64,000 bases of DNA from Mytilus trossulus (taxonomy: Eukaryota): positions 69,998,001-70,062,000 of the forward strand of contig NC_086378.1 in assembly GCF_036588685.1 (NCBI RefSeq). The letters are read 5' to 3'. Position 1 is the first letter of the stretch. Each line of letters begins with the position of its first letter. The notes beneath the pieces are model-generated. The model was not told the origin of the DNA. It made no database searches and saw only the letters and a list, made by a program, of their open reading frames with translations. The position numbers were made by a program, and so were the translations under genes. Below, piece after piece: positions 20,976 through 58,653 of the stretch.

Positions 20976-22443
20976 GTAAGTATACGTTTTGACAATAATA
21001 TAATGAATAATTCGTTCAGAAAAGATTGAACTCAGAAAAAACTATTGAAAAAATCTGCATTTTTTATTGTTTATATTTTAAACAAATCTGTAATGGGTTT
21101 GTATCTTTTAATTGCCATACAAGTGGGAGTATTAGATTTCTATAAAACCAGGTTGAATCCCCATTTTCTACATAAGAAAATTCCTGTACCAAATTATGAA
21201 TATATCAGTTGTCATCCATTCATATGATGTTTTTGAGCTTTTGATTTTGCAATTGGCTAAAGGACTTCCGGTTTGGATTTTTTTCTCGGAGTTTGGTATC
21301 TTTGTTATTTAACCTTATTCAGACATTGGATGTTATTCAGGATCTTTACATTGGAAACATACTCATTATTCCTGTCAGTTTGTATATCCCTCAGCCGAGA
21401 AAACAAGTCAAACAATATAATTAATTCAGAAGAAAATACCGTTTAAATAAAAACTTTTATTTAGGCTTAGCAGGTAGTCATAATCATATATATACATATG
21501 TCAAGAATATAAGACAAATGAAATACAAAGTGATCATAGATTATAACTGACAAATAAACTAAATTAAAGAACTACTAAGTAGTATCTTCATAAATTTAAA
21601 GAATGAAGCATAACAAATTAAAAATTCTATGAAATACAAATGAAATATAAATTTCATACCCGCCTCGTACAAACATATTCCACCTTAAGGGAATGGGAGG
21701 GAGGGTTTTGAAAAAAGAACAAACGACGAAACACAATGCTCTTTAACAAATTGGCTACGCTGATAGAAGTTTCAACGACAAACTAAGACATATTTAAACA
21801 TAAAAATTCTAAATTATTAAAATGTTGACTACCTGTTTTCTGGTGTTTCTGAAAAGTGAAATTCAAAAGTGAGTTCTACTTTTAAATTGAATTTTTTATC
21901 CAATATAAATTACTGTACTGCGTGACCAATAAAAAACGAGTATAATTTAATTTAGAAAGCAGAGCAACTAAACCTTGACCAGATATGTGCTCACTGTTAA
22001 ATGAAGTGAGACCAATTGTCCATTTACCAGTTCACTAAATTGTTTTTCTGATTCTTCATTAATTAATCATTTTTAATCAAAAATTTACAAATTAATTCAG
22101 AAGAAAATACCGTTTAAATAAAAACTTTTATTTAGGCTTAGCAGGTAGTCATAATCATATATATATACATATGTCAAGAATATAATACAAATGAAATACA
22201 AAGTGATCATAGATTATAACTGACAAATAAACTAAATTAAAGAACTACTAAGTAGTATCTTCATAAATTTAAAGAATGAAGCATAACAAATTAAAAATTC
22301 TATGAAATACAAATGAAATATAAATTTCATACCCGCCAAACCGAAGGTCCGCCAAAAAAACAACAAATCACAGAAACTGCAAATTGCAACTTTTATAATA
22401 ATTCTAAAATAATAAGAAAGTAAGTCTACACCATCTTCTATAA

Positions 22444-22514
22444 TCCAAGTCGAGGACTCGAACCTCGATCCCCCATCACAAGGACAGGTGTACTAACCAT
22501 TGTACTAACAAGGA
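22444..22514 (-). ncRNA. tRNA-like cloverleaf (tRNA-Asp-like scaffold, altered anticodon loop) inside the Ngaro element
   Basis: TCCTTGT TA GTAC AATGGTTA GTAC A CCTGT CCTTGTG ATGGG GGAT CGAGG TTCGAGT CCTCG ACTTGGA (71 nt). D, anticodon and T stems fully pair; acceptor 5/7; Pol III A and B boxes present. Confidence 0.75.
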
Positions 22515-22705
22515 TGCATGATAGAGTCAACAGTGTAAACCCTCTAGAATAATAGAAAAACAGGATCAAAAATCTACTCTCTCTCATGCGGAGATTAAGA
22601 GTAAACCTTCTCCTAAAATTAAGCTGCAATTTACCAATATAATTTGATTTTTAAATTCTTAATCAAGTTTCAAACACAAATAAAATTCATTCTACCTTAA
22701 AGGAT

Positions 22706-23233
22706 TTAAACATGTGCAAGAGTATTAGCTATAAAGCTAAAAACCTTATTAAGACCAGTGGTGGACAAATTCAATTTGTCAACTGTAAACAAAGTGTTAA
22801 TTGGCTTTCTCACTCTACTATAAAAAGTCTTCTCACATTGCATGTATTTGACATCAGTTAGAGAGGAAGCCAGCTGTTTTAGTACATTGTTAAAATTAAT
22901 GACGAACAATTCAGACTGATTAAAATCACATGGTCTGGGTAATACAGAAGATAAGATAATAACACAATCTGGATTACAAATTCTCAATTCATGTATAATA
23001 TCACGAATGTATTTTTCAAATAACTTAGCATCTATATTAAATACAACATTTGTACCAACATGTACAATTATATTATTAAAATGGTACCAAGTGAATACCC
23101 TGTTTTTTAATTTCCTTAAAAGCATTTCACAACTCAGACCCCCAAAGGCCTGAAGTTGCGTATTCCTCATCTCTGGAAGATACTTTAAAATTGAATCTGA
23201 TATAACTAAACTGGGTTTACCCCATGCCTTCAA
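22706..23233 (-). CDS. SGNH/GDSL-type hydrolase ORF of the Ngaro element
   Basis: Block I ISDSIL, block III VHVGTN, SSVLPR, block V DKLNL (expected DxxH). Confidence 0.8.
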   Translation of the reverse strand: MKAWGKPSLVISDSILKYLPEMRNTQLQAFGGLSCEMLLRKLKNRVFTWYHFNNIIVHVGTNVVFNIDAKLFEKYIRDIIHELRICNPDCVIILSSVLPRPCDFNQSELFVINFNNVLKQLASSLTDVKYMQCEKTFYSRVRKPINTLFTVDKLNLSTTGLNKVFSFIANTLAHV

Positions 23234-23294
23234 ACCTACAATATAATTTAAATTATTAACTAATAAAATTATAACACCAAATAAAAAACAAATA

Positions 23295-24314
23295 TTACAG
23301 TCGACACATCATTTTTGACGAGACTTGCATCTTATCATTTAAACCATATCTAAGATACAATTTATAGGCGTCACTCTTCCAATCCCCTTGTAATTGAATG
23401 AGTTCAGAAGATACACCACATTGGAATGCCCAAGTTGCACCTCCTCTTCTGAAGCTATGAGAAGAATATTTTGTTGGATCTAACCCAATTTTCTCCACAA
23501 TGTTTTTCAAAAAAATCTGTAACATATTGTAGGACACTGGATTAGTTTTTCTACCAGATAAAACAAGAAAAGCTGGGGAAGATGCTAAAGCAGGAAATTT
23601 TGCGCACATGGCATTAAATGCACTAAAAGCACACAACGGAGAGGATAAATTTTTAACAATTGGTATTTCTAAAACTCTCTCCCCAAATTGTATAGTCTTA
23701 GACCAACAAAACTGAACTAGTAAATAATCTTCCAAAACTGAAATATTTTCTCTATGCAAACATTTAGAGCTATCATCTACTGTCCCAACCAAATTGGATT
23801 TTCTACAAATCAAATAGAAAGCAAAAAGAAAAATGCACCAATATGTGTAACTATTGATATCATCAAAATTTAATTCCTCCCTTATTTTTAATAAAATACT
23901 AGGTGTGATTGGAAGAGCTGCCCGAACTGTGTGAGGATTGCATCGTTTTAATCCCTTCATAAACAATCTAAAATAGAATGACTCAAAATGAATAAAAGGT
24001 AGATCAAAAAGTAAATGTAACACCTTAACTCCATTCAGATAATTTCTGATTGAGTCTACACTTTTGAATGATCTACTTAAAAATTGTGCAAACAAGCAAA
24101 GTGTATTTAACTCGCAAGGCAATGTCTTTAAATTATAAAAATGACAAAACAGGAAAAAGGCTTTCCACTGTATCTTTAAATTTTTTCTAGTTCCTGAAGC
24201 GTGTGCAGATTTCAAAGATTCTTGTGCTTGTGTTTTAAGCATGTGAAGATCTACAGATAAACTATGTTCACCAATTGTGACAGAATCTGAAAAAATTTGA
24301 ATCTGCATTAACAT
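23295..24314 (-). CDS. Tyrosine recombinase of the Ngaro element
   Basis: Catalytic set present: CRKSNL (R), SKT (K), HSFRRG (HxxR), GDW, AYKLY (Y). Confidence 0.93.
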   Translation of the reverse strand: MLMQIQIFSDSVTIGEHSLSVDLHMLKTQAQESLKSAHASGTRKNLKIQWKAFFLFCHFYNLKTLPCELNTLCLFAQFLSRSFKSVDSIRNYLNGVKVLHLLFDLPFIHFESFYFRLFMKGLKRCNPHTVRAALPITPSILLKIREELNFDDINSYTYWCIFLFAFYLICRKSNLVGTVDDSSKCLHRENISVLEDYLLVQFCWSKTIQFGERVLEIPIVKNLSSPLCAFSAFNAMCAKFPALASSPAFLVLSGRKTNPVSYNMLQIFLKNIVEKIGLDPTKYSSHSFRRGGATWAFQCGVSSELIQLQGDWKSDAYKLYLRYGLNDKMQVSSKMMCRL

Positions 24315-25977
24315 GTTGAATATTTCTACCTTCTATTGCTTCATAAAACTGCACAGAGTAACTATCTGACAAACTCCATCTGGACAACATATCTGGTAAC
24401 CTATTCTCAATACCGTCTATATGAATAGCTCTTAATTCACATTCTTTAATTGCACAAATAAAACATATTTCTCTAAGACAAGCTTGTAAAAAACGACTCC
24501 TTGATTTCCCTTGATTGATAACTTGAACTGAAACCATATTGTCACACTGAATACATATCTTTCTGCCTCTTTGTCCCCACAATTTCAAACACACAATAAC
24601 TGACAATAATTCCAAAGCATTTATATGTAAGCTTTGCTGTACAATGAAATCTGGAAACACACAGTGAAAAAACTGTCCATTTGAAACTCCTCCACAACCT
24701 ACCAAACATGCATCTGAAGCCATATACTCGTCTGGTTCTGTCCACTCTTGAAGATTTAACAGTGAAACACCATTATATATCTCCAAGAATTCTGACCACC
24801 AGAGAAGATCATGCTTCAATTCCTCGGAAACCTCTAAAATACAATTCTCATTTTTAAACTCCCTAAGAAAATTTAAAATTCTTGATATAAAAATACGACC
24901 TGGTCGAACACAACTAGCAATAAAATTCAGTTTTCCTATTAAGGACTGTACTTCTTTTAAAGATGCTGTGTCTTTGTTTAACCAAAATGAAACTAAGTCA
25001 AAAATCTCCAATAATCTATCAGGAGTAACTTCCATAGTCATTTTTTCCGTATCAAACCAGACACCTAAAAAACTCATTCTGTAAGAAGGACTACTCGCTT
25101 TCTTTACAGATTCTTCCAAACCACAGCTATCTAAAACCCATTTCAATTTTGTATATGAAATATCTGCTTTTTCACTTATTTCAGCACCAGCAAAATCATC
25201 TAAATAATTTGTCAAAGATATTTCATGCTTTTTGGCTATAAATCTGACAGCATTAGTCACTGACTGACAAATAAAAGCACTAGATTTTAAACCCATAGGT
25301 AAAACTCTATCAATAAAAAAATGACCTTTCCAGGTAAAACCAATTAAATTATAATCTTTTGGATCTACTGGAAATTGTCTATACGCTCTGCGCAAGTCCC
25401 TTTTAAAAATTTTACAGAATTTCCCTTTTTCTTTAATAATTTCAATAAAATTATCCACATTAGGATAATGTAGTTCTATATGTTTACCTAAATAAACATT
25501 TTTATCAATTCCATCATTGACAGATTTGCCCTTCGGAAAACTCAAATCCATGATAACTCTCCTTTCTTCCGAGTTTGCCTTTGGCACAGAATTCAAAGGA
25601 GATATTACCAAAAGATCATTAAACGGGTTTGATGCAAAAGGACCTAGTACGGCACCATAGCCTACCTCCTTTTTAATATATTTATCAATCTCTTTGGCAA
25701 AATTTCTTGCCCCAGTATGATTTTTGACAATTTTACTGTTTCCAAATTCTTCAAATTTTCTATCAAAACCTAAAGGCCAACCAAATTCTAACATATCACA
25801 GATTTCTTGATCGTTATAATCAAATAATTCTTGTCTCCAAAACTTAATACATAATTTAGAATAAACTGGAACTTTAAATAAATCAAAATTATATCCTGGA
25901 ACGCCAATGAAGGAATTGTGCAAATTCAAAAACAAATTTTGTTCTGGTAAAATAACTTCAAAAACTGCAATACACAA
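24268..25977 (-). CDS. Reverse transcriptase / RNase H of the Ngaro element
   Basis: RRVIMDLS, DLRRAYRQ, LPMGL, YLDDF; RNase H SDAC, HINALEL, CDN. Overlaps the YR ORF by 47 nt. True start is uncertain. Confidence 0.95.
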   Translation of the reverse strand: MCIAVFEVILPEQNLFLNLHNSFIGVPGYNFDLFKVPVYSKLCIKFWRQELFDYNDQEICDMLEFGWPLGFDRKFEEFGNSKIVKNHTGARNFAKEIDKYIKKEVGYGAVLGPFASNPFNDLLVISPLNSVPKANSEERRVIMDLSFPKGKSVNDGIDKNVYLGKHIELHYPNVDNFIEIIKEKGKFCKIFKRDLRRAYRQFPVDPKDYNLIGFTWKGHFFIDRVLPMGLKSSAFICQSVTNAVRFIAKKHEISLTNYLDDFAGAEISEKADISYTKLKWVLDSCGLEESVKKASSPSYRMSFLGVWFDTEKMTMEVTPDRLLEIFDLVSFWLNKDTASLKEVQSLIGKLNFIASCVRPGRIFISRILNFLREFKNENCILEVSEELKHDLLWWSEFLEIYNGVSLLNLQEWTEPDEYMASDACLVGCGGVSNGQFFHCVFPDFIVQQSLHINALELLSVIVCLKLWGQRGRKICIQCDNMVSVQVINQGKSRSRFLQACLREICFICAIKECELRAIHIDGIENRLPDMLSRWSLSDSYSVQFYEAIEGRNIQHVNADSNFFRFCHNW

Positions 25978-26016
25978 TTTACAATGATCTTTCTTATGTA
26001 AACATGCATTTAGTAG

Positions 26017-27551
26017 TCAGGCTTTTTTATTTGGGCAATTGTCTGAACACTCCGGGTGTGTTTTTTGGATATGTTCTTTTTGCCAACATGAAGCACATAT
26101 GTGATGCACAGTTCTTGTTAAACCTCTAATAACTGTAGTGTGAGTTGAGTTGCTGTGCTCACATTTATTGCGTTGATACTTAACACAAAACCAAATTTGC
26201 TCTTTACCATTCTGGTTTTTGGACACTGATCTAAAATTGGCTTGCCGCACTTCTTTTGGCAAACTTTGTCCACTTAACATAACATTTTCCAAAATCTGTG
26301 AGTCATCAGACCAAGTTTTTCTACCTAATTCAATTAATCTTAACCAAGCGGCGTAAAATTCTAAAACCGATGCCCAGTTATAAATGGAGCTAAAGTATGC
26401 GATTTTCTGTAATAATTTTAAACGTCCTTCTTTTTCCAATTTATTTTTGCAGAAATTATTTATAATTTCAAGTTCACCTGCAACAAGCATTTTAAAATGC
26501 AATTGCTTAAACTCCAAATCTTTACTCACATACTCATATTGTAAAAAATTATGTGGAAAAGACTGTGGATTTATAACTTTATCTGCAGATTTTATTTTAA
26601 GTCCTGACTTTAACTTTTTACTCTTTTTCCTTGATGATAATTTCGCTGACAATTCATAATCAGATGAATCCTCAGAGCTGGAATTTGAACTTGTTTCAGA
26701 TTCAGACTCGGTACTACTGTTCACTCTCAATACAGATTCAGGCAACTGTACTACCTTCTGAGATTTAGAATCCAAATGTTTTTCTTATGTTGAGTAGTTT
26801 AAGAAATAGAACCCTTAGCTAAATTCATTTTTTTTAATTGCTGCAATAACTCTTGTTCATTTGTTACTTTTTCGCTTTTAAATTTCACATTTTTCTCTTT
26901 TGAAGTTTCAGCGAGCTCGGACTTTCCACTAAATTTAGTGTCAAAATCCAAACCTAACCTCTTCAATTCATCATTAACCTCTTTATTTAATTTATCATTA
27001 GCTCTTAAATTTGTTAAAGTGATCTCACCCTTTGATTTCTTTGATTTCTTTTTGGGCTTTTCTTCTGATTTTGATAGCCCATCCACTTTCGCCTCTTATT
27101 CTGTGATACGTTGGTTGAGCTGCTCCCTCTTGAGTCTTTGTTTCTTTTCTTCTAATAGCTTAACTCTTAATTCCAGCTCTTCATCGGACTCCCGAGGTTT
27201 CAACTCTTCACACTCTTTGCTATTTTTCTTGAGGGGCGTGATGAATATCAATGCTGCGGCCTCATTTATCTTATTATTCTCATCATCTGACATAAGATCA
27301 AGCATGTCATCTTCCTCTGCATGCAGTTCTAATTCATCCCGATCTGAGTTATTATCGGCCATTTTCTGAAATACATACTCATATGCCATGTCATCTATAC
27401 CAGACGTTCCAAAATTATTAAATTTTTTATAGTCTATTATCGCGACTTTTCTCTTAATAGGACGATTCATAACTAACGAAAAATTAAATACAAGTAACAA
27501 AAGCTGTACAAATCTCAACGACGACAACAAGCGTTGATAAAAATTGAACAA
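26017..27551 (-). pseudogene. Gag-like ORF1 of the Ngaro element, broken by one in-frame stop and a frameshift
   Basis: Segments 27551-27096 and 27086-26799 share a frame across a TAA; 26775-26017 is in another frame and ends in a Cys/His-rich region (CVKYQRNKC...HHICASC...HPECSDNC). Confidence 0.75.
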
Positions 27552-28644
27552 ACGACGAAATGCTCAAGTTGAATAAATACTATATATAATTCGCTACATA
27601 AACGATGATTCTTTCTGAAGAAATGAACAAACGACGAAAAGCTCAAATCAAATCAAGAATAACTTTTGAAAAAAGAACAAACGACGAAACACAATGTTCT
27701 TTAACAAATTGGCTACGCTGATAGAAGTTTCAACGACAAACTAAGACATATTTAAACATAAAAATTCTAAATTATTAAAATGTTGACTACCTGTTTTCTG
27801 GTGTTTCTGAAAAGTGAAATTCAAAAGTGAGTTCTACTTTTAAATTGAATTTTTTATCCAATATAAATTACTGTACTGCGTGACCAATAAAAAACGAGTT
27901 TAATTTAATTTAGAAAGCAGAGCAACTAAACCTTGACCAGATATGTGCTCACTGTTAAATGAAGTGAAACCAATTGTCCATTTACCAGTTCACTAAATTG
28001 TTTTTCTGATTCTTCATTAATTAATCATTTTTAATCAAAAATTTACAAAATACTGTCTTATCAAAAAAGGATTGCAGTTGCCGTTTCGTCATCTGTTTAT
28101 ACAGCATGTATGACGTCTATTAAGATTATTGATTTCTATTCTTATAATAAAACAAATATTTAAAAAAACAAAATTGTAATACAAACTTTTTAGTGGCAAT
28201 ACTACATATATAATTTAAATAGTGCATGATAACAGTAGAAAGTTTATCAACAAAATCAACACAAATACCAATATTTGATTCTTTGATTAATTTGACAAAC
28301 TTAAGAAAATATTATAATAGTAATAAACATAGACAGTCTAAATGGTGAAGATATTTTTATTACTGAAATGTTTACTTGTATGTGGTTATTGTACAAGCTT
28401 GAGCCGGCAAGAGTACTCTCGTTAGGTTGCTTTATTTGTATGAAATATTATTTTTTTCAATTAATAAATTGCCCTTAAAGACAGTGTTCTAAAGCTGTAA
28501 TATTTTAAGATTGTTCACTTCTTTTTTTATCAGTATATTCAATATTCAGTTTATCCTATGATGTAGTTTCTTATGTAGTTTATATTAAATTGTGCTGCAG
28601 CTGCATTCTTTACAATTTAATAGCAGGATTTAGTTTTTCTTCAG

Positions 28645-50940: not shown

Positions 50941-51293
50941 GTTTGGCTTTATACTATTTTGATTTGAGTGTCACTGATGAGTCTTATGTAGTCGAAAAAA
51001 GCGTTTGGCGTACGTTTCGTCCCCGAGAGTATCATTAGCCCAGTAGTCAGCACTTCGGTTTTGACATGAATATCAAATATATGGTCATTTTTATAAATTT
51101 CCTGACTACAAATTTCGATTTTGTTTTGGAAAACTAAGAATTTTCTGATCCAAGGCACAGAATAACTTAGCCGTATTTGGCACAATTGTTTGGAATTTTG
51201 GGTCCTCGATGTTCTTAAACTTTGTACTTGTTTGGCTTTATAAGTATTTTGATCTAAGCGTCACTGATGTAGTTGAAACGTGCGTATGGTATA
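50941..51293 (+). mobile_element. Retrozyme monomer with internal deletion, bounded by two degenerate hammerheads
   Basis: CTGATGA at 50974-50980, then GTC-ttatgta-GTC-GAAA; second GCGTCACTGATG..GAAAC near 51259-51280. Confidence 0.7.
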
Positions 51294-52286: not shown

Positions 52287-54640
52287 AGATAAGATAAGAT
52301 AAGATAAGATAAGAATTGTATTAATCTAATCAAGAACCCATAAAGGGCATCATTTTACAACACAATATGATTGGAAAAAGCAAAACAGAAAACTAAAACA
52401 TACTATAACGTTATGGACAGGATCAGAGCCTAACACAACATGTGTTTTATATAACTATTATATTAAATCTTATAACAATAAAATACTAAATTACTTCATA
52501 TATTTTGTTTACATCTGGATCTTATTTCTACACCTTTAATAATGTAATTTCCTAGGCACATGAGAGTTGGTAAATGCTCATTTGTGAACAGCCAGAAATG
52601 TTTCTTATCATTAGGGAGTTCTTTAAAATTAGTACAAAAAGTGACAACTTTATCAAATAATAATTTCCTCTGTTCATCATTTAATGGACAATTTACTGTA
52701 AAATGGGTCTCATCTTCAATAGAATTTGATCCATGTGATAAGCAGTGATGACATAGACGTTGAGTTCTCTCTATGTATGCTTTACTATATCTATCTTTCT
52801 CAATTATAAGATCATGAGCACTTATTCTCATTTTACATATATAGCTCTTCTTATACTAAAATCTTTAATTGATAAATAAGCCTCCTTTACAAAGTCAGTC
52901 TTGAGGTTGAAATAATTCTCTAATTTACCATTACCTTGTGATAAGGTTTCATATCTTTTGACCAACCAAAATGTTTTAAAACTATTACAAAGTTTACATT
53001 TTACAAGTTTAATTAATTTATTGAGCTTTGTATCTAAATTTTGTATATCAAGTGATTGAAGTACATATTTCATAGATGAATACCAACAATTAATGTTTTC
53101 TGCATCAAAAAATGTATAACAAACATAAGCATCATAAAGTAACCCTTTGTCCAACTTGTTAAGCCTGTGTACATATTTTACCATAGATATAATGACAGAA
53201 AAATAAAAAGGAAATCTTGCAACCTCTGATAACACTGCTAAATTTGAGGCTTTCTTATTAACACCAAGAATCTTCTTAAAATTTCTGAAATGGGATTTTT
53301 CCAAATAATCATTTATGTAGATTAATTCAAATAGATAATCACTTTTTTTCTTGCAAGCAGCAGAGTTAATTTTAAATGAACCCCAAATTTCACTACAATA
53401 TAATAAAATTGGTTTTAATGTGTGATCATATAAATGAATTGCAGTATCAATACTTGGATTACAAGCTGACATGGATTTTTGTAATTTAAATTTTGCCTTT
53501 AAGGATTTTTTGAATAGCTCTTCTTTCCCCTGTTGAAAAAAGACCACTAGAAGTAAAGACTATCCCTAAATATTTACATTTATTAACACATTATATAGCC
53601 TCTTTATCTAAATAAAATGATTCCTTTAAAAAATTTCCAGGCTTGTTAAAAATTAAAACTTTTGTTTTTGACAAGTTTACATCTAGACACCAGTCAATAC
53701 AATAAGTATGCAATATATCAAGTCGGTTTTGAAGACCTTTTTTAGTATTTGATAATACAATAATGTCATCAGCGTACATTAGACAATCAATTATACGCCC
53801 ATTGATATCAACAGCATCTGGATTTGGCTCAAATTTTGGAGGCAGATCGTTAATGAAAAGCTTAAATAAGTTTGGCTTATATACTTGTCTTACCCCAACT
53901 AGTGAACTGAAAGATTGTGTTAATACATTGCCCACTTTCACAGACATTTCATTCTTGCTGTACATATCTTTTAAAATAGTATAAAATTTTCCAGATATGT
54001 TATTTTCCAATAATTTATATTTAATACCACAGTGTATGACCCTGTCGAAAGCCTTTTTAAAGTCCACAAAGCAAGCATAGATTTTCCCCCCTTTTTTGTT
54101 AGTATATTTGTCTAATATGTTTTTTAAAACAAACATATGATCAGATGTTTTACTCTTTTTTGAAAAAAACAATCTGACATGGATGAATTATATTATTTTT
54201 ATCAAGATGAATGTCAAGTCTTTTTTTTAAAATACTGTTAACTAATTTTCCAATGCATTAATTTATTGCTATGCCTCTGTAATTTTCAGGTTTACTAGGA
54301 CTCCCTGCTTTAAAAATTGGACATAAATAAGATAATGCCCATTTGTGAGGGTATTTTCCAGAGCAGAATACTAAATTAAAAAGTTTCTGCAAAACAGGTG
54401 CAAATATACTTCCCCCTGATTTTAATATCTCATTTGGAATACCATCCAATCCTGCAGCTTTATTATTCTTTAGTTTATTTATAGCATCCAAAATTTCTTT
54501 TAGGGTTATTTTGTAATCTAGTTCACAAAAAGTTGGATTTTGTTTCAAAATTTTTTACTTTTTTACTTATTTCCTCTAATCTGTCTTTAAATTTGTCAGA
54601 GTTAAAATTTAAAGATTGAAAATATTAAAACCAGACTTTA
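52287..54640 (-). mobile_element. 5'-truncated, frameshifted LINE (CR1/L2 group) ORF2
   Basis: AAGLDGI, NYRGI, FVDFKKAFD, YADD and a C-terminal CxxC...EDETHF...CP across four frames; (CTTAT)n tail at 52287-52313. Confidence 0.88.
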
Positions 54641-55101: not shown

Positions 55102-55300
55102 ATAGATAAAGGAAGATGTGGTATGAGTGCCAATAAGACAACTCTCCATCCAAACAACAATTTATAAAAGTAAATCATTAAAGGTCAAGGGACGGCCTTC
55201 AACACGGAGCCTTGGCTCACACCGAACAACAAGCTATCAAGTGCCCCAACATAACTAATGTAAAACAATTCAAACAGTACAACCAACCGTCTTATCTATT
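55102..55300. repeat. Dispersed SINE-like family (other copies ~8900-9020, 13460-13570, 20600-20775 inverted, 56890-57100)
   Basis: Shared GGAAGATGTGGTATGAGTGCCAAT..ACGGCCTTCAACACGGAGCC core. Confidence 0.6.
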
Positions 55301-55533
55301 TCAAAAAATGTTTATTTGGATCAGTGGGGTTGATGCCAGTGCTGCATGTGCTGAAAAAGGTTTCATTCCAAGGTTGTCACCAGCGCAGTAGTCAGCATTT
55401 TTGTGTTGACATGGATTGGTTACAAAACTTTGTTATTTTCCAGATAAATTGAAGATTTTTTACCACAGGAATATATATATATATAGATTACCCAAGGCGA
55501 ATTCAGCAAAACCTTTTTAAACTTCTGCATACA

Positions 55534-56882
55534 TTATAGGTATATTGATCCAATATCCACCCGTTTATAGTATGGATCCCATTTCCGACCTTACATTGAT
55601 TACGTGCTACGTGTACAATGTTTCGAGTTCTTTCGGAATTATATTCCAGGTAACTCTCTTCAGAGGTCGTCCGTTTTATTTTTATTTTCTAAATGTTTGT
55701 TTGTTTATTATTTTGTACATTTTATTTATTATTGTACCTTTTATTTATTATTGTTCGTTTTATCAACGTATGGATAACTGGTTTTGGTTTTGGTTATTAG
55801 ATTTAGTTAAAGATACGTTTCAATATGCATTTTTCATTGTCAACGCACCTTCCTTTGGTTTTAGTGTAACTGTCTAATTAATTTCTATTGGGAGACATTG
55901 ATTTATTTCAAGTGTTTCTTAACGATTTCCCCAATGTTCCTGTTTCTTTTGAATGCTATTGTAGGTTTTTTATCAAAGAGATTTTTGAACTGAGGGTTGT
56001 CTTGAATTAAATGCCAATGTTTTCTAATAATGGTTTGTAAATTTTCCGCATTAGCGTGGTATTGTGTTATGAAAGATATATTATAGTTATCTGTGTTTTT
56101 GTTTATGCTTGTTTCTTTGTTTGTTAATTTGTTTAATCTTTCTGTATGGGGAATATTTCTTAATATTTTATTTACAAAAGCGATTTTGTAACCTCTTTGT
56201 ATTAATTTTTCTGTAAATAAGTTTATTCTTTCATTAAAATTGTCAGGATCAGAGGTATTTCTAAGAATTCGTATTCCTTCACCTTTAATAAAGGATTTAA
56301 AACAACTTTTAGCGTGGTTAGAATTTTGGTGTAGATATTGGAATTTTTCAGTTGGTTTTGTGAAACATTTAATATCTAAGATATTTTCTTTTTGAAATCT
56401 CTGTCCTTTATACGTTTCTAAGTCTAGAAATTTCAAACTTTGTCTGTCAATTTCATAAGTAAATTGCAGTAGGTTGTGGTTTGTGTTTGCTATTTTGAAA
56501 AGAAGTTTAACTTCTTCCGTAGTACCTTGAAATAAAATATATCCATCATCTTTCATACGTTTATGAAATAATATTTTGTTTTTGTGTGGAAAGATGTTTA
56601 GAATTTTATTTATATGTTGGTATATAGCTATATCTGAGATTTGAGGACTTGCTACATGGCCTTGACTAGCTCCTATAATTTGCCTATAACATTTTTTGTT
56701 GAAGGTAAATTCGTTATTAAGGAGAATTAAGTTTGTTATTTGTAGTAAATAGTCAAAACTGGGTTTTATTATGTTATATTCTAGGTTTTCATATATCCCC
56801 GTAACACTGTTTAGAGCGGCAATAATAATAAAAATGTGATCCATACTATAAACGGGTGGATATTGGATCAATATACCTATAA
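55534..56882 (-). mobile_element. 5'-truncated Penelope-like element with inverted terminal segment
   Basis: RT fragment 56836-55903 (QIIGASQG, MKDDG, FLDL, KPT..QYLH..SNH, IAFKRNRN); perfect 45-bp inverted repeat 55534-55578 / 56838-56882. Confidence 0.88.
55586..55669 (-). ncRNA. Complete type I hammerhead ribozyme
   Basis: CGACCT-CTGAAGA-GAGTT...AACTC-GAAA-CATTG...CAATG-TA^AGGTCG; stems I, II and III all pair. Confidence 0.9.
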
Positions 56883-58609
56883 CGTATAATTGCCATTGAG
56901 ACAACACTCAACCAGAGACCGATTGACATAGAGGTTAACACTATAGGTTGCCATACGGCTTTCAATAATGAGCAAATGTTATACCGCAGTGTAAGCTATA
57001 AAAAGCTTCGAAATAACAAATGTAAAACAATTCAAACGAAAATACTAACGGCCTGATTTATGTACAAAACAATGAATGCTAAAACAAATATGATAAACAG
57101 CAACGTACTCCTATCGAAAGTTATCAATTATGTTTAAAAACTTCACACGAAACTATACAAGGTAAACAATCATTAATAAATAACAAACCTGAAAATAAAA
57201 ATTGATGAACAGTTTTTCAAATTACTCATTTGTATTCGACTTTTATCTTTCACAATTAACACCATTTATATATTTATATATTTAGCATGGTATATCTTAC
57301 ATGTACATTCAGTGGTTAAGTGAACCTCGTCATGACTTTTGACAGTTGACCAAAGATGTTATATTTGCTTTGTATGAACAAAAGGAAAATGCAGTAATGC
57401 TTATCGCCTATTATTTTTTTTCCATTTTTTTCCATTTTTTTGCATATACACAATGCTTCTGAAATAATAGATGGAATTCACTTTATCGTCGTTGTGTTTT
57501 ATGTTATCTGATTAAAATATTGCTTAAAAAAAAAATTTGAACCACAACACAAACTGTTCAAAATGGAAGACCACTACAGTTGCACTACAGTCTAACAGTG
57601 ATTTTTTAAAGATTTTTTTTTTCGTTAATTTTGAGGTAAATGTTCTTCTGCACAGTTTGTAAAAATCCCAAAGTCATTATCATATCACAACAGGGAGTAA
57701 ATTGATAATGAACTTTTGTAAGTAAAAGCACATGGAAATCAATCTAAATATAAAGGCATTTAGGAGGGGCTAATATGTCGATCATCTGTTGATACCAGTG
57801 TCCAGCTGTTAATCCATGACCACAAGATAAATAGTGCAGTCTTATCGCATTATATCATGTGTATTGCAACAGAAGTAAGTTATACAACATGGAGGTAAAC
57901 AGAGAAAGGTGCGAAAAGGAGAAAATCTAACCAAAAGGAATAAATCTATTTTATGGATGAGAATGTGAAATTTCTTTGATAGCCTCTGACAAATTGTTAA
58001 GGTTCTTACTACAAACAAGAACAACATGTCTCTGAATCTGTCTTCTGTTAGGAGTTTTAGGCATTTTAACTAATTTTAAGTTTATATGAAATTTTTCAAT
58101 TCAATAAAACTCTAAAATCATGTGGGACAGTCTATTTTCAGGAAGGGTATGGCCTTGATCTTTTTTAAACATGTCTTTTATTGTATAATTTAATTGCATG
58201 TTCTAGCTAATTTCATAGTATATTTATTTTTAAAATACAAATTGAAATCATCTTTTTAGTGATAATAATTAGGTTAAATATTAATTATATGCATCTTGTT
58301 ATTCACTTATTTTAGACTGTCTGATCAGAGGCGGAGCTTTGTCTATATTTAATTACTACATCACAGATGTTGGTCATATATGTGACGTAAAACTCCTGCC
58401 AAATGCCAAGTTAGTGTTGGTCATTGCACTCATAATGCAAAATTTACAGTATTAGAGCATCAAAGACACAAAGTGTGTGGTTCTATTGACAAAATAATAA
58501 AATCAGAACACTCATGTGGTGTTCTCAGTGGCATTTTTGTATTTATGTAGCTTTTATAGGGGTTCTAAGGGGGAAATAGTTATCAAAGGCACAAGGATTA
58601 TAATTTAAT

Positions 58610-58653
58610 ACACCAGACGCTCGTTTCGTCTTCATAAGACTCATCAGTGACGC
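58610..58653 (-). ncRNA. Minimal type I hammerhead ribozyme with intact core
   Basis: GCGTCA-CTGATGA-GTC-ttatgaa-GAC-GAAA-C-gagc-G-TC^TGGTGT. Confidence 0.85.

Follow-up and report, generated by a model that had tools for sequence, protein, structure and literature searches.

We have identified, at positions 55533-56882 of a 64,000-nucleotide stretch of Mytilus trossulus DNA (hereafter the window, meaning the whole stretch that was analysed), what is very probably a 5'-truncated copy from a young Penelope-like element (PLE) family of Mytilus that belongs to a clade without a nuclease. The copy encodes reverse transcriptase (RT) only. Our leading interpretation as a whole, to which we assign a probability of about 0.55, combines this identity with an insertion in which RNA of the element was copied onto both ends of a DNA break not of its own making.

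A PLE family and clade without a nuclease

The element is read from the minus strand. Positions 55903..56826 contain the 3' 307 codons and the stop of a 649-aa RT-only ORF, spanning RT motifs B-E and the whole thumb, and reach the 5' truncation point of the copy (56826), where contigs of three sequencing runs depart from the window. The C-terminus of this ORF is AFKRNRNIGEIVKKHLK, followed by TAA. An earlier note on this DNA had described the ORF as stopping right after the linker, with no GIY-YIG domain to follow; the stop does come directly after the last motif, but what this motif closes is the RT thumb and not the linker, and a cysteine linker is absent too. The missing domain was borne out by a GIY-YIG profile search, which gave no match in the six frames of 55300-57100 or of the whole window, and the A-rich 3' UTR that precedes the ribozyme (55670..55902, minus strand), in which a 19-nt unit is repeated 3.3 times at 55704-55763, is at 233 nt too short for such a domain. 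Pfam yielded neither an RT nor a nuclease match for the window ORF or for proteins P0001-P0005, a PDB sequence search gave nothing significant, no relative was found in viral contigs, and prokaryote genomes contained seven distant loci and no close clade member.

Membership of the PLEs is indicated by the N-terminal motifs GLNF and DKN of PLE-type, telomerase-related RTs, both present in P0128, and by a hammerhead near the 3' end combined with a tandem or inverted pseudo-LTR structure, as seen in the window copy and, in tandem form, in the related metagenome loci L001 and L002. An AlphaFold model of the RT (pLDDT 90, pTM 0.85) had its best matches to telomerase RT, at a TM of about 0.4, with TERT in 8 of the top 10.

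Full-length proteins P0128 and P0131 are identical to the window fragment at 305 of 307 residues and P0010 is 99% identical; the 90% cluster of the latter has 14 members, among which are three intact 649-aa proteins and six proteins named as M. galloprovincialis or M. edulis. These six named members are on six contigs of 0.18-2 Mb, a pattern that suggests dispersal but is not proof of it. The full-length 649-aa proteins consist of RT only, have GIY-YIG at neither end of the ORF and do not read on into such a domain; had they done so, the proposal of the earlier note would by its own terms have been refuted. A nonsense mutation specific to this copy is ruled out because all full-length members share the stop, and a Naiad whose nuclease was removed by 5' truncation is ruled out by the full-length proteins themselves.

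Sequencing runs were compared for 4 of the 24 listed (three contig runs and one RNA run). Long contigs of two runs differed from the window by 6-7 letters over 1.1-1.3 kb, indicating that the family is young, and the longest contig (X13 record 3) extended 1,891 nt beyond the truncation at 56826. One X13 contig continued for 32 nt beyond the 3' end of the element at 55533, a length in keeping with the optional 30-40 bp 'tail' tied to a second RT start site in PMC11167929. Contig depth at the ribozyme end was 2.5 to 5 times that of the ORF, as would be expected from pseudo-LTRs or short copies, depth being no measure of copy number.

The same trait was found among more distant relatives. A protein search recovered five longer relatives of 560-648 aa and 51-55% identity, all without a nuclease, and the named clade members among the matches listed in a search with P0002 (the best 120 of 216) were from Mytilus, Saccostrea, Pinctada and Argopecten. 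Searched against 1.84 billion representatives, a profile built from 40 RT-only proteins gave 42 matches at 541 bits or more, 30 of which were new, lying outside the profile. When thumb-complete proteins were scanned with the GIY-YIG profile, matches were obtained for 0 of 100 proteins scoring at least 530 bits (a band that includes the RT-only profile's own rows and their cluster mates), for 96 of 124 in the range of 400-530 bits, and for 10 of the 20 with lower scores. Alignment of 26 relatives revealed a common, basic start (M..RRF) and a stop no more than about 35 residues past the last thumb motif. In two quick trees, both midpoint-rooted, without bootstrap and with neither a named PLE reference nor an outgroup, the nuclease-less proteins grouped together: in the first (21 of 121 proteins left out, DD motif or thumb missing), 48 of 101 rows formed a clade with an SH-aLRT of 100, nested in 53 rows at 97; in the second, the clade contained 48 of 141 rows at a support of 96 (46 nuclease-less and two truncated), with an inner group of 44 at 99. 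Basal rows P0052, P0053 and P0197 are also nuclease-less and have a long N-terminal extension. In these trees without a named reference, the clade is placed among unnamed proteins with a C-terminal nuclease and a CxxC linker, and its motifs resemble those of the zebrafish Neptune row in the supplement of PMC8557442. From midpoint-rooted trees of this kind, which hold no named references, we infer that the clade may have been derived from Neptune by nuclease loss. The missing nuclease is a trait of the family and of the clade, and the atypical PLE lineage proposed in the earlier note is upheld in that the domain is absent from both ends of the full-length family proteins and from the whole clade.

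Other nuclease arrangements were observed elsewhere in the trees and loci. A second, separate nuclease-less clade of six rows (P0082, P0100, P0110, P0252, P0258 and P0300; support 100), to which L080 and L005 possibly belong, suggests that there has been more than one lasting nuclease loss. In a well-supported PLE group of 16 rows of the second tree, GIY-YIG is embedded within the RT thumb, ahead of its last motif, which is a candidate third nuclease position in PLEs; this group includes P0006, P0078, P0089, P0090, P0091, P0095 and P0103 and loci L022, L027, L044, L047 and L054. Upstream, these loci carry a long ORF of about 490-860 aa from stop to stop. Penelope-like RT genes in contigs from bacterial bins (L081-L087), two of them in one 2.8-Mb contig labelled Nitrospirales, are most likely eukaryotic contamination.

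The layout of a whole unit is known from the 2 of 80 metagenome loci that fall in the clade, L001 and L002, and is that of these relatives rather than of this family's own upstream DNA. L001 is a complete 4,251-nt unit with a 111-nt terminal repeat and contains ORF1, RT and a hammerhead and nothing else: ORF1 has 201 aa from the Met and a basic, RG-rich end, the RT has 643 aa, and the hammerhead, with 5/5/6-bp stems and long arms, spans the unit junction. In L002 the order is RT end, ORF1, RT start, such that ORF1 stands alone between two RT genes, and two M. edulis gene models have a similar basic-ended region fused to a clade RT. Family searches with ORF1 retrieved only ORF1 itself, and an Atlas score of 0.75 was under the threshold. 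For ORF1 as a possible split-off N-terminal domain of Neptune ORFs, an HHalign value of 88% did not withstand a control: it was due to P0210, a single fused gene model among the reference sequences, and with P0210 removed the probability was 0.2%. In comparisons with the Neptune N-terminus, the L001 and L002 ORF1 sequences were beaten by just two and one of 200 shuffles, respectively.

The hammerhead ribozyme

Downstream of the 3' UTR is a type I hammerhead whose stems II and III are extended (55669-55586, minus strand), for which a motif scan and the minimum free energy (MFE) fold agree, as the earlier note had claimed, on a complete ribozyme with a predicted cut at 55592/55591. The distance of 57 nt given there from the cut to the 3' end needed correction to 58-59 nt. 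The scan detected CUGAAGA and GAAA framed by stems I/II/III of 6/5/5 bp, and a GUA site, matching the CUGANGA / GAAA / NUH core and three helices of type I hammerheads; of 30 random windows generated with a first-order Markov model, none had an equally strong motif. The hammerhead is both the MFE and the centroid structure of the region, in which stem II is prolonged by an additional 6-bp helix and stem III by one of 4 bp; the fold is stable relative to shuffled sequences (z of -2.6 and -3.3; equal stability in 0 and 1 of 200 shuffles) and is kept with the 3' tail included (z of -1.7). Rfam did not report it at the gathering score. On the basis of these folds, the ribozyme is predicted to be able to self-cleave as a monomer. 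In the RNA run, depth was 1-3 over the ORF and zero over 55605-55665, and read ends were not piled up at the predicted cut. A unitig break in run X3 falls exactly at 55591/55592 and is not counted as evidence of cleavage because X13 and X14 break at 55688 and 55667. By eye, both flanks of stem I (within 55586-55680, minus strand) show complementarity to the outer helix of stem II, in its 3' arm, and their pairing could produce a pseudoknot or an off-state fold.

Animal PLE hammerheads are mostly minimal and weak, whereas those of fungal and protist PLEs have a large helix III and are active as monomers (PMC4209133); the mussel ribozyme shares the large helix III of the latter, with monomer activity that is predicted here. 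Helix III is 5-6 bp in the clade members with a canonical core (the window copy and L001) versus 1-2 bp in Neptune, and outside the clade the helix III arm was 8 nt or less in 21 of 22 hammerhead matches, L029 being the exception. Three nuclease-bearing PLEs have helix III arms of about 55-60 nt (L029:3145-3236, L036:4280-4370 and L069:4071-4155), and a long helix III is therefore not exclusive to the nuclease-less clade. Past the RT stop of L002, positions 1010-1115 contain a hammerhead-like fold with a 4-bp stem I, a long stem II, GAAA, stem III and a UA site; its core is non-canonical, with UAGAGGA where CUGANGA is expected, and may be a variant or a dead copy. The hammerhead of PAc, an anole PLE, is dispensable for insertion in vitro (PMC11167929). 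A full-size hammerhead provides a clean test of the role of the ribozyme in PLEs, given the minimal form of most animal ones.

Insertion structure and the source of the primer

The segment 3' of the predicted cut is 59 nt long (55533..55591, minus strand), with a hairpin at about 55578-55547 in the fold, and ends at the probable start of reverse transcription (55533, minus strand), where X13 and X14 contigs depart from the window. At the other end of the copy, a 5-nt filler at the head-to-head junction (56827..56831), which resembles slippage on the adjoining ATT repeat, is followed by an inverted copy, on the plus strand at 56832..56882, of the last 51 nt of the element (55534-55584), ending 7 nt short of the predicted cut site. 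The earlier note had thus correctly recognized that the last bases are inverted at the 5' truncation, although the length is 51 and not 45 nt. The full inverted repeat (55529-55584 / 56832-56887; 56 nt, 96%) is made up of these 51 nt, one mismatch and 4 flanking bases common to both ends, and the single mismatch between the inverted element copies is private to the copy at 55579. A DNA transposon with 56-nt terminal inverted repeats was ruled out, as the repeat consists of the 3' end of the element itself and contigs continue beyond 56826. The two 3' ends face outward and have a common RNA start position, to within 1 nt, which lies 58-59 nt beyond the predicted cut. Both flanks are outside the element and are broken off by it: the left (55419..55527, plus strand) is a retrozyme-type host repeat fragment, 68% identical to 58808-58712 just upstream of a retrozyme hammerhead, and the right (56884..57100) is a very high-copy host repeat, of which other copies match from 56884 onward at very high depth.

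These features could be accounted for by a series of steps. Tandem or pseudo-LTR copies would be transcribed, and the long-stemmed hammerhead is predicted to cut as a single unit and to set the RNA end. RT would then start internally, 58-59 nt past the cut and just after the hairpin, by analogy with PAc (PMC11167929); one DNA end would prime a 1.3-kb cDNA and the other a 51-nt cDNA. Repair would join both cDNAs head to head with the 5-nt filler, with loss of the DNA between the flanks, a deletion that is inferred because an empty site was not found. An inverted end is in itself ordinary, since inverted copies are typical of PLEs (PMC8557442, section 6) and PAc uses internal start sites when it extends both strands (PMC11167929). 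The unusual point is an inverted-end insertion without a nuclease at a site without telomeric repeats.

Priming at existing DNA breaks, which taken alone we rate at even odds, is favoured over its main rival, in which the element brings the RT and borrows the cut, a co-resident Neptune- or Naiad-type GIY-YIG enzyme nicking both strands in trans before the RT extends. A borrowed nuclease is a plausible minority reading. Both flanks terminate in the same 4 bases, ATAC-3', which fit a sequence-preferring nuclease better than a random break and which, if simply joined, would give an AT-rich palindrome of 8 bp; at AT-rich DNA, PAc nicks both strands and extends them, and its dimerisation is predicted (PMC11167929), and Naiads are listed for two Mytilus species. 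Target duplication, however, amounts to at most 1 bp, the flanks are pieces of unrelated repeats, and no terminal sequence shared with a nuclease-bearing element was seen in a comparison that contained no Mytilus nuclease-bearing elements.

A mainly telomeric or subtelomeric clade of the kind represented by Athena, Coprina and MjPLE01, with the window copy as a stray, is unlikely. While the tandem units of L001 and L002 resemble end-extension arrays, telomeric repeats are absent from the 59-nt tail and from 30 further X13 letters, there is no tandem TTAGGG in the 64-kb window, L001 and L002 contain no telomeric arrays (0 and 2 single CCCTAA, respectively), and the scatter of the named family members over separate contigs again suggests dispersal. 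Even less probable is a nuclease in cis outside the RT ORF, whether in an upstream ORF, as a detached Naiad-like domain, in a spliced exon or as ORF1 itself. Such an arrangement would be in keeping with the frequent detachment of Naiad nucleases by frameshifts in a KR-rich block (PMC8557442), with the KR-rich start of the clade ORFs and with the lack of a known family match for ORF1. Against this, the start Met is conserved across the clade, neither CxC, DKA nor a gap of IFD length is present, the GIY-YIG profile is blank in the six frames of L001 and L002 yet matches 64 of the 88 sequences scanned, and no nuclease motif was seen by eye in the ORF1 sequences.

Relation to known PLE groups and to retrozymes

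The clade shares with Neptune the RT motifs GLKF, LPKIHK and PGRPIIS and the thumb end, at about 30% identity, as well as a 3' hammerhead and tandem and inverted insertions. It differs in that the C-terminal GIY-YIG and CxxC linker of Neptune are both absent across a clade of at least 44 rows, in its separate ORF1 (two relatives) and DKN/DKS and RxRDDG motifs, in an insert of about 17 aa after LPKIHK in the inner clade, and in the longer helix III. A nuclease-less, Neptune-like element, MjPLE01 of the kuruma shrimp, is cited in section 17 of PMC8557442. Naiads have in common with the mussel family an ORF that ends after the thumb, a KR-rich block, an inverted 5'-truncated copy and an occurrence in Mytilus; the N-terminal GIY-YIG, CxC, DKA and IFD of Naiads are all absent here, and the canonical hammerhead present here is missing in Naiads. 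The motif A-to-B distance is 64 versus 59 in nuclease-bearing relatives, which is not the +20 of IFD. The Hydra clade is similar in its YRDDG-like active-site motif, canonical hammerhead and aquatic invertebrate hosts, while the mussel family has GxKF rather than RWK, DKN rather than DKT, and no C-terminal nuclease. Athena and Coprina also combine an RT without a nuclease with a hammerhead near the 3' end; unlike the window copy, which is at an internal site, they carry reverse-complement telomeric repeats, and the clade has animal (bivalve-named) hosts and nuclease-bearing nearest relatives among those found. Athena has an ORF1. Its two-ORF layout (PMC8557442, Fig. 1 legend) is a further likeness.

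PLEs have been divided into nuclease-bearing, chromosome-wide and nuclease-less, telomere-held elements, although nuclease losses are described as not unusual, with MjPLE01 and PLE-X named (PMC8557442). Known nuclease-less PLEs are mostly telomeric. A description of a nuclease-less, bivalve-containing clade was not found in the literature searched, but Fig. 8 of PMC8557442, which tags nuclease-less subclades, Repbase or Dfam may label it; a survey of bivalve transposable elements (PMC10294476) mentions Penelope solely to exclude it. Nuclease loss within Neptune is already known from MjPLE01; what is apparently undescribed is the present clade, of which the window copy lies at an internal site. 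We propose, tentatively and at somewhat less than even odds, a deep animal PLE clade that has long been without a nuclease or a telomere anchor and that spreads along chromosome arms via broken ends as a bare telomerase-like RT, a separate ORF1 and a monomer-active hammerhead, and is still active in mussels. If true, young internal copies in a large animal clade that lacks a nuclease would depart from the current scheme and would make the source of the primer the question. At 649 aa, the intact protein offers a compact, telomerase-like RT suited to expression and to tests of priming at blunt or broken ends, with relevance to the use of 3' ends by telomerase-type enzymes.

The window also contains a separate canonical retrozyme hammerhead (58610..58653, minus strand), which is unlike the element's ribozyme region, and a decayed one near 50974. 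Mytilus non-LTR retrozymes and the idea of PLEs as their mobilisers were already presented in PMC7229834, and a preprint (10.64898/2026.07.22.740005) supports a PLE origin and left out nuclease-less PLEs. The Mytilus retrozymes have the type I hammerhead, tandem units and host group of the element in common; they are short and non-coding (PMC7229834) and share no sequence with its 3' end. The suggestion that the element is a mobiliser of the local retrozymes was accordingly not sustained, as BLASTN at word size 7 detected no similarity between its 3' end and the hammerheads at 58653-58610 and 50974, and nothing singles out this PLE family for such a role. Located 1 kb from the element, 52828-54554 (minus strand) is a broken non-LTR retrotransposon (Pfam RVT_1, E of 6e-16), and a cluster of long ORFs at 22443-27563 (minus strand; 582, 345, 255 and 200 aa), where a tRNA-like match lies at 22514-22443, has the look of a further mobile element.
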